DNA of 63,217 nucleotides. Source: Escherichia coli. GTDB lineage: Bacteria > Pseudomonadota > Gammaproteobacteria > Enterobacterales > Enterobacteriaceae. Position 1 is the first letter of the stretch, and the number at the start of each line of letters is the position of its first letter. Position numbers and translations under genes: made by a program. This document shows positions 37,829 through 63,217 of this stretch, piece after piece. The stretch is from NCBI RefSeq assembly GCF_003334255.1, contig NZ_QOWU01000026.1; one strand, written 5' to 3'. The notes beneath the pieces were generated by a model. It did not search any database. It was not told the origin of the DNA and worked only from the letters and a program-made list of their open reading frames with translations.

Positions 37829-38023
37829 ATTGTTGCGTATTGATTTTGGTTGTTCACCATATGACTGATAATACCGTCTTTATGGTTTTAAAATCAAGGT
37901 GTAAGTTCGTTTTTGTTCATGGTTGATTATCTTCTTTTGCGTTGAAAAGTGTTTTGTTCACTTGCTAATGCGTACATATTGAGTACAGAATACATTATAA
38001 ACTTGTGTACAGGATATAAAGCA

Positions 38024-39193
38024 TTGGCACTGAGCGACACCAAACTACGAGGCCTCTACGGAAAACCCTACTCTGGCCCTGCTGAAATCACCGATGGTGA
38101 CGGGTTAAGTGTGCGGATTACTCCAGCAGGAACTATCACGTTTCAGTACCGTTATCGCTGGAATGGTAAGCCAGTACGTCTTACTGTCGGGCGCTATCCG
38201 TCTACTTCACTGAAGGACGCGCGTGTTATCGTCGGTGAGATGCGCGCATTGTACATGAAGGGAGTTAACCCTAAAAATTATTTTGCGCCCAGTGACGGCG
38301 AACTGACATTAAAAGAATGCCTGGATCAGTGGTGGGATAAGTATGTTACTGATCTGAAACCCAATACACAGACGCTTTACAGATCCGTCGTGTACAACAC
38401 TATGTACACACAGTTTGAAGGCTCGCCAGTTGCCAGTATCCCAGTATCGGCATGGGCTCGTTTCTTTGACAAACAAGAAAGCCTCAACAAGAAAAAGGCT
38501 CGTGTTTTGTTGTTACAACTGCGTTCAGTTATTAACTGGTGTATCAGCCGCCAGTTAATCCCATCATGCGAATTACTCAAGCTTAGTGTTAAGAATATTG
38601 GGAAAAAACCAGATGTAGGGAGTCGTGTACTTACCTATACGGAACTGGCAAAAATTTGGCTGGCGCTGGAGAACTCAAAAGTAGTTACTTCCAACAAGGT
38701 GTTACATCAATTGCTATTGCTATGGGGGGCCAGACTTTCTGAGCTACGTCTCGCGACAGCCAGTGAGTTCAACATGGAAGATCTGGTCTGGACAACCCCA
38801 AAAGAGCATTCAAAAATGGGGAATATTATCCGGCGTCCGGTATTCACTCAGGTTAAACCTTATATCGAGAGATTGCTTAATGCGGGTTTTGATGTGCTAT
38901 TCCCCGGGCAGGAAATAGATAAACCTATTGATCGTTCGTCGGCTAATTTGTACATGAAAAAGTTAAGGGAGAAAATTGATATTCCTGAATGGAGAACGCA
39001 TGATTTTAGGCGTTCTCTGGTAACGAATTTATCTGGGGAAGGAATTATGCCCCACGTCACTGAAAAAATGCTGGGGCATGAACTTGGGGGAGTTATGGCC
39101 GTGTATAATAAACACGACTGGTTGTCGGAACAGAAAGATGCGTATGAGTTGTATGCTGATAAAATTTTCTGGCACGCTAAACAGCTCGGTTAA
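38024..39193 (+). CDS. int: Tyrosine recombinase, P4-type phage integrase
   Basis: ORF 37949..39193; start taken at TTG giving (M)ALSDTKLRGL...; N-terminal arm-binding region and C-terminal catalytic domain (..HDFRRS.., ..GHELGGVMAVY..). Confidence 0.85.
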   Translation: MALSDTKLRGLYGKPYSGPAEITDGDGLSVRITPAGTITFQYRYRWNGKPVRLTVGRYPSTSLKDARVIVGEMRALYMKGVNPKNYFAPSDGELTLKECLDQWWDKYVTDLKPNTQTLYRSVVYNTMYTQFEGSPVASIPVSAWARFFDKQESLNKKKARVLLLQLRSVINWCISRQLIPSCELLKLSVKNIGKKPDVGSRVLTYTELAKIWLALENSKVVTSNKVLHQLLLLWGARLSELRLATASEFNMEDLVWTTPKEHSKMGNIIRRPVFTQVKPYIERLLNAGFDVLFPGQEIDKPIDRSSANLYMKKLREKIDIPEWRTHDFRRSLVTNLSGEGIMPHVTEKMLGHELGGVMAVYNKHDWLSEQKDAYELYADKIFWHAKQLG

Positions 39194-39344
39194 TTCCTCC
39201 GGCTTTAAGCCATTGTTCAACGGCCTGACGACTATATCGCGCCGGATGAGTAAGTACTGGTTCCGGGAATCCGTGTTTTTTTCGCAAATTATACAAAGCT
39301 GTGCGCCTTTTTTGTAACAAATCAGAAACCTCTTTTTCGGTCAT
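39177..39344 (-). CDS. AlpA-family excisionase/transcriptional regulator
   Basis: ORF 39177..39359; MTEKEVSDLLQKRRTALYNLRKKHGFPEPV... short HTH protein overlapping the int 3' end. Confidence 0.6.
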   Translation of the reverse strand: MTEKEVSDLLQKRRTALYNLRKKHGFPEPVLTHPARYSRQAVEQWLKAGGINRAV

Positions 39345-39402
39345 TAAGTTGACTTCCATAGTATGCGCTCCTTTTCTACATGTATTTCAACAGCCTGATA
39401 TC

Positions 39403-39426
39403 ATCCACGCCCTAAAGGACGTGGAT
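39403..39426. promoter_or_regulatory. Hairpin ATCCACG-ccctaaagga-CGTGGAT (copy 1 of a repeated ~30-nt motif)
   Basis: 7-bp perfect stem with 10-nt loop; same loop and inner stem recur at 52601..52642. Confidence 0.4.
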
Positions 39427-39437
39427 TCCCGCTACGT

Positions 39438-39815
39438 TCACTCTGACAATTCGTTGATCAAGTCACGGTATTTATTCAGTTCTTGCAACGCCTTACATGC
39501 ACCCTCCCATCGTTTCTGTTTCCGCCCGGCGCGGCGCGCTTCTTTCCGTGATTTACGTAGCAGGTCACCTATAATGTTGTGCTGAACTGGCTGAACTGGC
39601 TGAACTGGCTGAACTGGCTGAACTGAATCAATATCTGTTTTGCTTCCAACTCCCTCTACTGCCTGCCAGATGCCGTTTTTTACCTTTACGATCCCCTGGT
39701 TTTTCAACTTCCACAGCGTATCAATGACGTCATTCAAATCAATATTGAGACCTTTAGAAATGCTGTCGGCTGTTGCTTTTCCTAATTTGTTCAATTCTGT
39801 GAGTACGGCGTTCAT
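39438..39815 (-). CDS. Hypothetical DNA-binding-like protein with (VQP)n linker
   Basis: 125 aa ORF; internal DSVQPVQPVQPVQPVQ encoded by a 9-bp tandem repeat; basic C-terminus. Confidence 0.5.
   Translation of the reverse strand: MNAVLTELNKLGKATADSISKGLNIDLNDVIDTLWKLKNQGIVKVKNGIWQAVEGVGSKTDIDSVQPVQPVQPVQPVQHNIIGDLLRKSRKEARRAGRKQKRWEGACKALQELNKYRDLINELSE
39583..39626. repeat. 9-bp tandem repeat (CTGAACTGG x ~5), in-frame within CDS
   Basis: gctgaactggctgaactggctgaactggctgaactggctgaactga. Confidence 0.85.
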
Positions 39816-39850
39816 TTTTTTCTCCTGATATTTTAATGTCGGTGGGGGTG

Positions 39851-61355: not shown

Positions 61356-61414
61356 ATTCCCCGCTCAGCGATAAATTAAGAAGCGTTGAGTGGGGAGAGT
61401 TCAGGATTGGCGAT

Positions 61415-62509
61415 TTGTTCTATGTGAGCACAGGCTCGCTTATCTCCTCAGGAAGATTAAAACCAGGCAAAATCAAACGTGTTTCAGCAAAGAGCGATCA
61501 AAACGGTATCATCGGAGAGTTTGATACCGAGTTTATGGATGATGCAAGGCATTATGAAAATTTTATAAGCGTTAATTTTTTTGGAGATGCTTTTTATCAT
61601 CCTTATTGTGCCAGCGTAGAAATGAAGGTGCATGTTCTTACATTAAAATCAAGTAAGTCCGACTTTAATGCAAAGCGCGGACTGTATGTTGCCAGTATGA
61701 TTAATAAAGCTTTAAAGGGGCGTTTTAATTATGGTCAACAGTTATCGAGTTCCAAACTCAGAGATGGAGAATATTTCATCTCATTACCAGTGAAAAATAA
61801 TGAAATTGACTGGTTTTTTATGGATAATTATATAGAAGAGCTGGAAGCGGCCCATATAGAAGAGCTGGAAGCATACCTGATAGCTGCTGGGCTGAGTGAT
61901 TACCAACTAACGGAAAAAGATTATCTTATCCTGGAACATTTTAAAAATATTGAATTTTCAGGCTTTCCTGTTACTGAGTTATTCTCAGTGTGCAATACAG
62001 GAAACATATTGTCTAGAGACATCATAGAAAATAGTGGGGATGTTCCTTATCTTTGTGCTAGCCGTGATAATAACTCTGTTAGTTCTTATATCGCCTATGA
62101 TGACTCACTCTTGGAAAAAGGGAACTGTATTTTTATTGGTGGTAAGACATTCGTTGTAACTTATCAGGAGCGAGACTTTTTTTCAAACGACAGTCATAAT
62201 TTGCGACTCTATGTTAACAATGAGGATGGAAGGACAAAGTTTGCTTATTTGGGCATTATTTCATGTATTTATAGGTCTATTTCACATAAATATTCATGGG
62301 GGGATAGTGTTAGTAATAGAAAAATTAAGAACGATGTTATTTGGTTGCCAGTGAAAAATAAGTCACCTGACTTTTGTTATATAAATGACCTTATTTCAGT
62401 TGTTCATAAGCTTGTCATTAAAGATGTTGTCCAGTACGCAGAACGCAAAATGAACGCATACAGGCAAGCTATAACAAGTCGCGGTTATGATGATTCTGGT
62501 GTCAGTTAA
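61415..62509 (+). CDS. Restriction-modification specificity (S) subunit with two target-recognition domains
   Basis: 364 aa from TTG; frame open back to 61334 (..VEWGEFRIGDLFYVSTGSL..); central IEELEAAHIEELEAYL repeat; C-terminal ..VVQYAERKMNAYRQAI.. Confidence 0.65.
   Translation: MFYVSTGSLISSGRLKPGKIKRVSAKSDQNGIIGEFDTEFMDDARHYENFISVNFFGDAFYHPYCASVEMKVHVLTLKSSKSDFNAKRGLYVASMINKALKGRFNYGQQLSSSKLRDGEYFISLPVKNNEIDWFFMDNYIEELEAAHIEELEAYLIAAGLSDYQLTEKDYLILEHFKNIEFSGFPVTELFSVCNTGNILSRDIIENSGDVPYLCASRDNNSVSSYIAYDDSLLEKGNCIFIGGKTFVVTYQERDFFSNDSHNLRLYVNNEDGRTKFAYLGIISCIYRSISHKYSWGDSVSNRKIKNDVIWLPVKNKSPDFCYINDLISVVHKLVIKDVVQYAERKMNAYRQAITSRGYDDSGVS
61830..61872. repeat. 24-bp tandem duplication inside S gene central conserved region
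   Basis: atatagaagagctggaagc-ggccc-atatagaagagctggaagc encoding IEELEAAH IEELEAYL. Confidence 0.85.
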
Positions 62510-62880
62510 AAAACATTTTACAATCGTAAAAATCCTCATATCATGATAAGAATGGTTACATTGCCACGCAGCCGAATCCGCCGATGAGCGGGCTTTTTTG
62601 TTGCTGAAAAAGAAAACAACAGGTGGTTAGCAGGGTATCAGTTAATCGGGGAAATTTTTAAATACCTCACAATTCAGCAAGTTGATGATTGTCTGGCTGG
62701 CGGTGAATTTGTTAAAAATCGCAACGCATGGTGAATCCCCCTCAGCGGCGGGGCGGCTGGTGCGGGCTGGCATTTTTAATGTCACAGGCAATGTGAAAGA
62801 CGCGGGTTCGGTGGCACCGGGCTGAACTCACCGGGAGGCACCCGGCACTATGCAGTTAACTGAAACCAGGTAATACTCTC

Positions 62881-62906
62881 AGGCCCCTCATCGCAGGGGC
62901 CTTTTT
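62881..62906 (+). terminator. Rho-independent terminator
   Basis: AGGCCCCT-catcgc-AGGGGCCT followed by TTTTT. Confidence 0.7.
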
Positions 62907-62912
62907 ACATGC

Positions 62913-62938
62913 AAAAAAAGCCCGCGCCGGGAGGCGCG
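62913..62938 (-). terminator. Rho-independent terminator (opposite strand)
   Basis: CGCGCC-ggga-GGCGCG hairpin preceded on + strand by A7 (U-run on minus strand). Confidence 0.6.
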
Positions 62939-63119
62939 AGCGGCAAGGAATAAAACAAAGAAAGTGAGTTTCGATTATTCACCGTGTGAATAATACCCGA
63001 TGGTGATGAGACTGCGCAACTGCGCGGCCTTTTCGTTTTTACTGGCAGTTGTCTTTTGTATTTTCAGACTTCAGTCAGTCCTTATCTGATTCAACCCACT
63101 ATCCCGGCCGGGAGGATTC

Positions 63120-63217
63120 ATGGCATTTAAACATTATGATGTGGTCAGGGCATCATCGCCGTCAGACCTCGCAGGAAAACTGACGCAAAAACTGAAGGAA
63201 GGCTGGCAACCCTATGG
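63120..63217 (+). CDS. Partial ORF (5' end only), possibly DUF1737-like
   Basis: MAFKHYDVVRASSPSDLAGKLTQKLKEGWQPYG... truncated by window end; family from memory. Confidence 0.35.
   Translation, partial: MAFKHYDVVRASSPSDLAGKLTQKLKEGWQPY

Follow-up and report, generated by a model that had tools for sequence, protein, structure and literature searches.

The window analysed here is a stretch of 63,217 nucleotides of Escherichia coli DNA (assembly GCF_003334255.1, contig NZ_QOWU01000026.1) whose right part, next to the tRNA gene argW, is occupied by a prophage. Behind its antiterminator gene Q this prophage carries a BcgI-like restriction–modification (R-M) gene pair, and directly in front of this pair stands a perfect heptanucleotide repeat that differs widely in copy number among related elements. 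From left to right we find an integrase gene, a xis-like gene, a leftward operon with antirepressor, methylase and recT/exo genes, the cI/cro pair, a helicase and a primase gene, nin genes and Q. The same order had been read by an initial annotation made from the sequence alone, which took the region for the accessory-gene-rich early half of a lambdoid prophage; gene order and content are confirmed by profile matches, and every element lies about where it had been placed. Its P4-type integrase, three antirepressor-like genes, orphan MT-A70 methylase, HigBA, hok, and recT and exo in the leftward operon were all recovered with the matches given below, and its R-M module could be refined to a BcgI-like type IIB/IIG system. 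The extent proposed there (37949–63217) is indeed prophage but its start had to be moved, since position 37949 marks no more than the first GTG in the int open reading frame (ORF) and the true left boundary is the 24-bp attachment (att) core at 37805–37828, ~120 bp further to the left; the right end of the element lies beyond the window. Our gene calls rest on matches to PHROG, Pfam, NCBIfam and PADLOC profiles and not on ORF length alone, and every ORF of expected size from the tRNA-Arg gene to the end of the window matches some phage family. The divergent pair of cI (minus strand) and cro (plus strand), flanked on the left by exo, RecT, Gam and Kil and on the right by helicase, primase and nin, represents the lambdoid layout. 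The region 37805–63217 very probably belongs to an Oslovirus-type (Sepvirinae) prophage without Shiga toxin genes (stx), of which it comprises the genes for integration, the early-left operon, immunity, replication and Q, and we hold the prophage assignment and the anatomy described here with high confidence.

The region was compared with phage genomes, as the initial annotation had proposed, by megablast against 50,697 phage records, and also with 5,426 complete E. coli genomes. The phage records that cover it best are the argW-integrated, Shiga toxin 2a (Stx2a)-converting LC645442, VT2phi_272, PA2/PA8 and F765, and the most identical one is the stx-negative PhiR12_3 (PV340552) from host ECOR13, which makes the Stx2a argW phages and PhiR12_3 the closest phages. 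Only one E. coli genome, SCU-104 (NZ_CP053284), covers at least 80% of the region, with a coverage of 93% at 99.2% identity. Its element extends over ~62 kb from argW to yfdC and contains beyond the early half nanS-p, holin, lysozyme and terminase genes, an N4-gp56-type capsid protein, tail fibres and a giant LPD-domain protein, a late gene set that by its annotated content is the short-tailed Sepvirinae architecture. Identity to the SCU-104 prophage and PhiR12_3 is 99.2–99.98% across most of the region, and for PhiR12_3 it amounts to 99.4–99.98% over the three blocks 43588–50276, 51686–59303 and 59227–63217 (blastn). The Stx2a Osloviruses show ~96% identity over the int-to-recT and cI-to-Q blocks (blastn), and LC645442 and Lyz12581Vzw, which are both Oslovirus by the classification in their own records, show 95–99% over 37760–40679, 45003–50276 and 52601–58640. 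With cI, cro and Q kept and a helicase/primase pair instead of O/P, the gene content points to the short-tailed 'Stx-phage' backbone of the Oslovirus/'PST2'/P13374 type. No PHROG match to N, cII or cIII was obtained among the tested ORFs between Kil and cI or after cro, which is a known trait of the Oslovirus/P13374 subgroup and does not exclude the element from the lambdoid phages sensu lato. For the argW 'PST2' phages no cII, cIII or operators were found and a bsuBI R-M system was described at that position (Yin et al., PMC4587872), and in Phi-191 and P13374 cI and cro are the sole lambda regulatory genes described (PMC4122784). The prophage is a new mosaic of a well-described family of which near-identical genomes are already public.

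At the left junction the tRNA-Arg(CCT) gene argW (37754–37828, minus strand; ARAGORN and Rfam tRNA) is identical to K-12 argW up to its 5' end, and the host genes dsdX and dsdC to its left are 99.9% identical to K-12. A low-GC stretch (0.38–0.45) was noticed in the host part of the window at 19000–34000, and we estimate from the SCU-104 gene order that the yfdE, evgSA, emrKY, dsdAXC block covers its right part, about 25700–34000. The attL core TTATATCCATTTAACTAAGAGGAC (24 bp, 37805–37828) is the reverse complement of argW nucleotides 1–24, and this identity with the first 24 nt of the tRNA gene places the prophage between argW and yfdC, at the 5' end of argW. In the record of LC645442 a 24-bp insertion duplication is marked at positions 46–69, which corresponds to 37805–37828 of the window. 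The 24-mer occurs as a single copy in the window, and in SCU-104 its second copy is found past the last phage gene, next to yfdC. The sequences of K-12 and the window agree over the whole tRNA gene and part directly upstream of the argW 5' end. As the insertion is at the 5' end, argW would have to be transcribed from phage DNA; the lysogen's argW would be separated from its native promoter and may be driven by a phage-side sigma-70-like site, the candidate replacement promoter TTGATT-18-TATTAT (37868–37897, minus strand; consensus scan, 9/12 matches).

The tyrosine integrase (389 aa, 38024–39193, plus strand; PHROG 1, E = 8e-69) shows the P4-type layout with an N-terminal Arm-DNA-bind_3 domain (PF13356, DUF4102; 7e-17) and a C-terminal Phage_integrase domain (PF00589, 4e-17), and the motifs RLSE at 237, HDFR at 326, GH at 351 and Y at 361 were assigned by pattern, not by structure. 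Integrases that target tRNA genes, and those of the P4 type, usually use the 3' part of the tRNA gene. The present one departs from this habit with a core of tRNA nucleotides 1–24, and its membership in the family stands. The xis-like gene (39177–39359, minus strand) encodes a small helix-turn-helix protein (PHROG 66 'excisionase and transcriptional regulator', E = 2.5e-7) and is convergent with int, which it overlaps. CPS-53 (KplE1) of K-12 shares with the prophage the landmark argW, the domain architecture of the integrase and homologues of yfdQ (52% identity), yfdP (57%) and the N-terminus of yfdT (81%), but it uses the 3' end of argW on the dsdC side, whereas this phage uses the 5' end on the yfdC side. 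The insertion at the 5' end explains why no CPS-53 material is present at the junction, and the different att site accounts for the limited likeness of the integrase to IntS, the unlike Xis and the absence of gtrABS. Homologues of IntS and TorI, which one could expect in an argW phage, were rejected by pairwise BLASTP: the integrase is similar to K-12 IntS in the N-terminal arm-binding domain only (29% over 93 aa) and the Xis-like protein shows no similarity to TorI. As gtrABS had no match in the window either, the earlier statement that none of intS, gtrABS and torI can be recognised holds, yet the yfdQ, yfdP and yfdT homologues are to be added to it.

The rightward early operon (54201–58688, plus strand; PHROG 16, 510, 319, 171, 268 and 79) starts with an unassigned ORF, which is followed by a DEAD/DEAH helicase (54572–56092), a Toprim primase (56082–57053), NinB (57053–57502), NinG (57507–58073), NinH (58070–58270) and the antiterminator Q (58263–58688; PHROG 79, E = 1.4e-46), behind which the lysis genes follow in the relatives. 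All features from here to the end of the window are on the plus strand. A promoter-like site at the pR' position (58685–58712; promoter scan, 10/12 matches) precedes the hok mRNA leader with sok (58719–58893; Rfam sok, 118 bits vs a gathering score of 59), hok itself (58888–59043; PHROG 251, E = 8.7e-31), the repeat tract and the R-M genes. Terminator-like hairpins cluster at 62577–63027, ahead of the lysis-side genes (terminator scan), and an STnc100-family small RNA (sRNA) with its own terminator (62696–62912; Rfam RF02076, 149 bits; terminator scan) lies in an interval that corresponds to the region just downstream of stxB in Stx phages. The last feature is the start of a small ORF (63120–63217; translation MAFKHYDVV...), which is cut by the end of the window and precedes the nanS-p esterase in relatives; the SCU-104 gene just past this point encodes a SASA-family esterase. 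In Lyz12581Vzw the order in this slot is Q, three tRNAs, stxA, stxB, nanS-p and holin, and here as well as in PhiR12_3, SCU-104, E110019 and 2015C-3121 it is Q-hok-tract-alpha-S followed by the nanS-p side. No stx was found in the window (tblastn, best E = 0.3). Judged by this gene order, the BcgI-like R-M pair and hok/sok hold the stx position. After induction the helicase/primase pair would replicate the genome, and Q would, as its position implies, antiterminate late transcripts that begin immediately behind the Q gene.

The alpha subunit of the R-M pair is annotated as an ORF of 653 aa (59394–61355) and matches PADLOC REase_MTase_IIG over its full length (E = 6e-228); including the upstream extension described below the feature covers 59304–61355. 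It combines an N-terminal nuclease motif PD-(X16)-EYK (PD at 29, EYK at 48) with the motifs of a gamma-class N6-adenine methylase (DFATGSAG at 358, NPPY at 457). Pfam reports N6_Mtase and, weakly, VRR_NUC (E = 0.008), and no PDB relative was obtained at E ≤ 0.01. The specificity (beta/S) subunit (364 aa, 61424–62509; two matches to Pfam Methylase_S; PADLOC Specificity_II, 9e-21) has two target-recognition domains (TRDs). A separate HsdR-type motor gene is absent from the cassette in the window and in five other carriers. Profiles and motifs point to a BcgI-like type IIB/IIG system and not to type I, and since the IIG and Specificity_II matches and the motifs are found without HsdR, the RefSeq names 'HsdM family' and 'restriction endonuclease subunit S' are misleading; the depositors of PhiR12_3 call alpha 'BcgI alpha chain-like'. 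The module is rare, being present in 30 of the 5,426 E. coli genomes and in 1 of the 50,697 phage records, and all inspected carriers have it in the Q-hok-tract-alpha-S context at several different chromosomal positions. Its genes are 100% identical to those of PhiR12_3. A central 24-bp repeat in the S gene (61832–61883; Tandem Repeats Finder, TRF) encodes IEELEAAH; the window has two copies of it, SCU-104 and JNEC-KY173 have three. In EcoR124I/II the number of central repeats sets the length of the spacer in the recognition site, and by analogy the IEELEAAH copy number should do the same here. One allele group has a different second TRD and can be aligned over only 63% of the module; such differences suggest that this phage-borne R-M family recognises several different target sequences.

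The tract between hok and alpha is a perfect (GACCAGC)x11 (59227–59303; TRF: period 7, 11.0 copies, 100% matches). It is preceded by ATGCTGCCA, in which an AAGGA Shine-Dalgarno (SD) sequence lies 7 nt upstream of ATG 59218; the sequence also contains a second ATG in a different frame, at 59210, and the remaining frame is interrupted by a TGA (59211–59213). In the alpha frame no stop codon occurs between 59214 and the annotated TTG start at 59394, the tract included, and in the 11-copy allele of the window neither upstream ATG is in this frame. When alpha is extended upstream of the TTG, its PADLOC score increases from 756.7 to 770.8 bits and the alignment gains 21 residues, with EPEITELANSWLKSYRLDYK matching positions 15–35 of the REase_MTase_IIG profile. 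A 98%-identical allele group has CTG in place of the annotated start TTG, and of the 17 nucleotides substituted within the preceding 90 nt in variant alleles, 10 leave the amino acid of the alpha frame unchanged, among them the three bases of a TCA>AGC serine switch. Full-length alleles in frame were also found: an IMG/VR contig (L015) has an ON allele with ATG 59218 in frame and a 707-aa protein MLP(DQRPATS)3SKSRK...EPEITEL..., and for strain 04-00955 even the Prokaryotic Genome Annotation Pipeline (PGAP) predicts an ORF of 739 aa that spans the tract. Because of the profile gain, the TTG-to-CTG and synonymous changes and the full-length alleles in frame, we conclude that the predicted coding sequence (CDS) of alpha extends upstream of the annotated TTG and that the tract lies inside its 5' part. 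RefSeq/PGAP labels the minus strand of the tract as 'YXWGXW repeat-containing protein' or 'hypothetical protein' of strain-specific length and starts alpha at an internal TTG or ATG (the window; L001, L004, L007 and L030–L042). As a 7-nt repeat is open in every frame, both calls appear to be annotation artefacts. A contig scan with (GACCAGC)5 found the motif dozens of times in one Planctomycetota metagenome-assembled genome (JALHRW01) and several times in Marichromatium bheemlicum; the matches listed are unrelated GC-rich genomes and have no bearing on enterobacteria.

To describe the variation of the tract we used alleles from 15 complete genomes, PhiR12_3, IMG/VR and metagenomes, of which 25 include both flanks; 15 further short-read contigs end within the tract. 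Among the 25 alleles the copy number ranges from 3 to 99 and the three frames are split 9:8:8. The SD-preceded ATG 59218 is in frame with alpha in nine (3, 3, 9, 9, 66, 72, 73, 93 and 99 copies), the upstream ATG 59210 in eight (16, 16, 19, 31, 34, 76, 79 and 91 copies) and neither ATG in the remaining eight (5, 11, 23, 50, 64, 65, 83 and 83 copies), and all three frames are represented even among the 12 alleles of ≤34 copies. A frame-conserved repeat ORF, either an upstream ORF or the minus-strand 'YXWGXW' protein, had been considered at a stage when the first four alleles were congruent modulo 3, and was rejected when 21 further alleles erased this pattern. Slipped-strand changes in copy number would move alpha among three states, namely with the SD-ATG in frame, with the second ATG, whose strength is uncertain, or with neither, and the 11-copy allele of the window would be in the third. 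The repeat unit that is not a multiple of three, its position just inside the CDS, the near-perfect purity and the equal use of frames are the sequence features of contingency loci. Loops of a heptamer are poor substrates for MutS-dependent repair, and a 7-nt unit would therefore suit a species proficient in mismatch repair. Whether the alpha gene is truly phase-variable appears to us about evenly balanced. The same weight is given to the wider proposal of a simple-sequence contingency locus, in which slippage of the heptamer would switch the nuclease-methylase between a strong, a possibly weak and an off state, forming a prophage-borne 'phasevarion' and mixed lysogen populations.

The leftward operon, from which all genes of this paragraph except higBA are transcribed on the minus strand, begins behind xis with a DUF1627-type ORF of 125 aa (39438–39815), named after the RefSeq label of its SCU-104 counterpart. 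A perfect 9-bp tandem repeat (five copies, 39581–39625) in this gene encodes (VQP)n, and as the protein has 125 aa here, 134 in SCU-104 and 129 in Lyz12581Vzw, this is probably an in-frame variable-number tandem repeat (VNTR). A PHROG-292 ORF (40063–40147), whose SCU-104 counterpart is named DUF1382 in RefSeq, and the orphan MT-A70 DNA methyltransferase with its DPPW motif (40023–40649; PF05063, E = 1.5e-22; PHROG 359; PADLOC MTase_II) follow, and no nuclease gene adjoins the latter. Antirepressor-family gene 1 has an ORF6N-type N-terminus (41128–41805; PHROG 1760, E = 1.9e-122). Directly upstream of it lie a C4 antisense RNA (41860–41945; Rfam RF01695, 67.5 bits) and an IsrK-like RNA (41971–42049; RF01394, 68.9 bits), both above the gathering score; the interval 41860–42049 has a fold z of -4.1, and the cassette is homologous to one upstream of a Rha-type gene in SCU-104. 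The genes for the HigB toxin (42149–42427, plus strand; PF05015 HigB-like_toxin, E = 1.3e-21) and the HigA antitoxin (42427–42732, plus strand; TIGR02607, 88 bits vs a cut-off of 47.7) are located on the strand opposite to the operon, with the toxin gene first and a one-base overlap at 42427. They are followed by antirepressor-family gene 2 of the BRO-N type (42775–43557) and an N-terminal fragment of a further antirepressor (43578–43856; PHROG 1726 and 130 for the two together), and by genes without assigned function (44237–46793; PHROGs), among them one for DUF551 with the yfdT-like N-terminus. The YfdQ/DUF2303 gene (45561–46382) and the YfdP-like gene (46446–46793) lead over to a recombination and host-takeover block (46868–49918; PHROG 743, 149, 148, 1050 and 294) with SSB, a lambda-type exonuclease (47455–48147), RecT (48144–49094), a Gam-like protein (49111–49392), an unassigned ORF and Kil (49706–49918).

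Antirepressor-family gene 3, of the Rha/AntA type (49989–50624, minus strand; PHROG 377, E = 4e-62), is located next to Kil, with an sRNA-Xcc1 upstream of it (50665–50753, minus strand; Rfam RF02221, 69.5 bits, likewise above the gathering score). Antirepressors 1 and 3 share a C-terminal domain (88% DNA identity, 41177–41410 vs 50038–50270) and have unrelated N-terminal DNA-binding domains, ORF6N in one and Rha/AntA in the other, which suggests that RNA-controlled antirepressor cassettes are shuffled modularly. Antisense control of antirepressor translation is known from P1, whose immI is c4-icd-ant, and from the IsrK RNA of Gifsy-1. By homology the antisense RNAs found here would control antirepressor translation and thereby provide induction inputs independent of the SOS response; the three antirepressor-family proteins are probably alternative inputs of this kind, with two of the genes placed behind C4/IsrK-class RNAs. 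Further upstream, an ORF of 183 aa (50890–51441, minus strand; PHROG 19473, unknown function) starts with the Sec-type signal peptide MMRKILRTTLITTIFFSPIVQA/EW and has no Pfam, NCBIfam or meaningful PADLOC match. The 1.4-kb block to which it belongs is complete in 3 of the 5,426 E. coli genomes and in none of the phage records, and the ORF is a possible lysogenic-conversion gene.

In the immunity region the cI repressor (52656–53369, minus strand; PHROG 4, E = 1.9e-60) is of the LexA/S24 type. As it has the cleavage site Ala112-Gly113, the GHSM serine and the FKR lysine, RecA-stimulated self-cleavage is the expected route of induction. The spacer between cI and cro (53465–53668, plus strand; PHROG 35) contains, beside a TTGACA promoter element, a pseudo-palindrome of the right-operator (OR) type, TATCACCTTTGGTTATA (53374–53390). 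A candidate left operator (OL), AATCACCGCAAGTTATA (51949–51971, minus strand), is an inverted copy of it (inverted repeat I2, 82% over 22 nt with 53375–53396), and its motif copy at 51955–51971 has two mismatches to the OR motif TATCACC-N3-GGTTATA. Lysogeny would be held by a lambda-CI-like, RecA-cleavable repressor acting at such TATCACC-type operators. Between the candidate OL and cI lies the 3' remnant of a BsuBI/PstI-family nuclease gene, comprising its last 100 codons (52124–52426, minus strand; positions 740–838 of 838 in PHROG 1639 and 219–316 of 317 in PADLOC REase_II). Lyz12581Vzw has an intact methylase and nuclease pair at this site, co-directional with cI and in a position like that of lambda rexAB, and an intact pair is also known at this position in PST2 phages (PMC4587872). 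With an intact pair in the relatives and a remnant here, one R-M system was evidently lost by deletion.

The nuclease remnant, the antirepressor fragment 43578–43856 and an alpha gene that is out of frame with both ATGs could also be read as signs of decay, and with a late region not visible in the window they would agree with a defective (cryptic) prophage comparable to CPS-53, whose left arm survives as a fixture of the chromosome and is retained for its accessory genes only. We regard this as unlikely, since int, xis, cI, cro, helicase, primase, ninB/G/H and Q match their profiles end to end with the catalytic motifs kept and no insertion sequence (IS) element was found across the 25 kb of prophage in the window. 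Furthermore the two closest relatives retain lysis, terminase, capsid and tail genes and both att copies, with a late region that is apparently complete by annotation, and a genome that is 99.7–100% identical has been deposited as a phage (PhiR12_3). That the element is a Shiga-toxin-converting phage with stx just past the window would fit to closest named phages that convert to Stx2a and to a window that ends before the lysis genes. It is nonetheless hardly credible: stx is always located between Q and nanS-p, and this interval is inside the window up to the small ORF in front of nanS-p, where it holds hok, the R-M pair and STnc100 but neither stx nor the tRNA trio, and SCU-104 and PhiR12_3 are also without stx. 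The stx-negative Oslovirus-type prophage remains our preferred reading, to which some points are less favourable. The window stops at 63217 and leaves the late half of this prophage outside. The operator motif is not enriched window-wide (7 observed vs 3.8 expected from shuffles), so the OL stays a candidate, and operators were not found in this phage class by Yin et al. (PMC4587872).

With respect to the tract, its minus strand could encode a genuine repeat protein (RWSLVAG)n, the RefSeq 'YXWGXW' protein, outside the R-M gene, which is annotated in many genomes and was also compatible with the four first alleles all being congruent modulo 3. This is very improbable, because the tract lengths fall into all three residue classes, so that the ORF is not conserved, and because 7 and 3 are coprime, which leaves a 7-nt repeat open in all frames of either strand and makes such an ORF automatic; several genomes carry a PGAP 'hypothetical protein' of arbitrary length instead, and in the window the ORF has only 37 codons and a TTG start. 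More serious, though still doubtful, is the view that the tract is an unstable non-coding or tolerated VNTR and that translation of alpha begins at TTG 59394 or at some other internal start at any tract length, with a constitutive R-M system. In most genomes PGAP indeed annotates a 653-aa alpha with the TTG as its start, which is also where the PHROG 13671 profile sets in, and an equal frequency of the three frames is also expected under neutrality. The TTG, on the other hand, is CTG in the variant group and has no SD sequence before it, in contrast to the AAGGA 7 nt before ATG 59218; the upstream 90 nt evolve as coding sequence in the alpha frame and bring a 14-bit profile gain, and a tract that is perfectly pure up to 99 units indicates rapid turnover, unlike a decaying relic. 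The contingency locus, which we favour over a tolerated repeat, also has evidence that speaks against it. The alleles are one assembly each and document evolutionary hypervariability, not a switching rate, and tracts of at least 50 copies in long-read assemblies may be miscounted. With an ATG in two of three frames, 'OFF' may fit only one frame, and low-level initiation at TTG 59394 is possible in the allele group of the window. ON alleles bear up to ~230 aa of DQRPATS repeats, the R-M genes have no established promoter, and no methylome or restriction data for this R-M system were found in the literature searched.

The element shows that the argW Stx2a-phage backbone also circulates without the toxin in commensal-type E. 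coli, with defence cargo in the stx slot, and such a toxin-free cargo variant is relevant to the origin of Stx phages by cassette exchange. It also exposes a systematic RefSeq error, consisting of a spurious minus-strand repeat protein and a truncated or misnamed 'HsdM'. To our knowledge E. coli is generally regarded as being without phase variation driven by simple-sequence repeats (SSR). The E. coli type I systems examined in one recent study were described as non-phase-variable (PMC8287963). Were the tract to switch in culture, E. coli would offer a clear case of an R-M enzyme under SSR-driven phase variation, with effects on phage resistance, on the uptake of foreign DNA and possibly on epigenetic heterogeneity through genome-wide adenine methylation, and changes in the IEELEAAH copy number (2 or 3) together with TRD replacement would add variation in specificity. 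If confirmed, the tract would represent a variant of a mechanism with precedents in other species, including a Campylobacter type IIG enzyme (PMC4889913). In the literature accessible to our searches neither the tract nor SSR-controlled R-M in E. coli nor BcgI in Stx-type prophages is described, a listing in a REBASE-based survey (cf. PMC7383803) being possible.

Compared with known systems, the prophage is most similar to PhiR12_3 and the SCU-104 argW prophage, with which it shares the backbone, the att site and the Q-hok-tract-BcgI-like cargo. It differs from both in its own HigB segment (42072–42416) and in the segment 50276–51686 with the N-terminus of antirepressor 3 and the 183-aa ORF, neither of which was found in these two by blastn. 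It also has 11 tract copies vs 65 and 83 in these two relatives, and two IEELEAAH units in S vs three in SCU-104. The argW Stx2a Osloviruses (LC645442, VT2phi_272, PA2/PA8 'PST2' and Lyz12581Vzw) have the same integrase and 24-bp argW core, and together with the wrbA phages P13374, Phi-191 and TL-2011c they have the same recombination genes, cI/cro class, helicase/primase, nin and Q at ~96% and likewise no N, cII or cIII. In contrast to the window with its hok and BcgI-like pair and the nuclease remnant, these phages carry tRNAs and stx2AB after Q and an intact PstI/BsuBI-type R-M system beside cI. The R-M type, hok/sok, HigBA, MT-A70 and the C4-ant cassettes are all of already known kinds. 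In P1/P7 immI (C4 RNA-icd-ant) and in IsrK-anrP of Gifsy-1, RNAs of the C4/IsrK family also lie immediately upstream, on the same strand, of an antirepressor-family gene. Unlike there, the cassette of the window is inside a lambdoid left operon, and a second, divergent copy of the sRNA-Xcc1 class precedes an antirepressor with the same C-terminal domain.

The R-M pair itself resembles BcgI and type IIG enzymes in having a nuclease-methylase of ~650 aa with an N-terminal PD-(D/E)xK motif and NPPY and a separate subunit of ~340–360 aa with two HsdS-like TRDs; the lengths of the PADLOC REase_MTase_IIG and Specificity_II models (637 and 341) are presumably those of BcgIA and BcgIB. The variable (DQRPATS)n extension that the heptamer tract adds to the N-terminus of alpha is not a feature of BcgI. 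With the SSR phase-variable R-M genes, such as mod and hsdM of Haemophilus and Neisseria and the type IIG gene cj0031 of Campylobacter jejuni (PMC4889913), the locus has in common a tract in the 5' CDS, a repeat unit that is not a multiple of three, a copy number that varies between strains and the occurrence of all frames. As in cj0031 (PMC4889913), nuclease and methylase would be lost together in the OFF state. In contrast to the Haemophilus, Neisseria and Campylobacter loci, this one occurs in E. coli, belongs to the late operon of a prophage and has alternative ATGs in two frames, and with a 7-nt unit and up to 99 copies (693 bp) the tract is far longer than typical contingency tracts.

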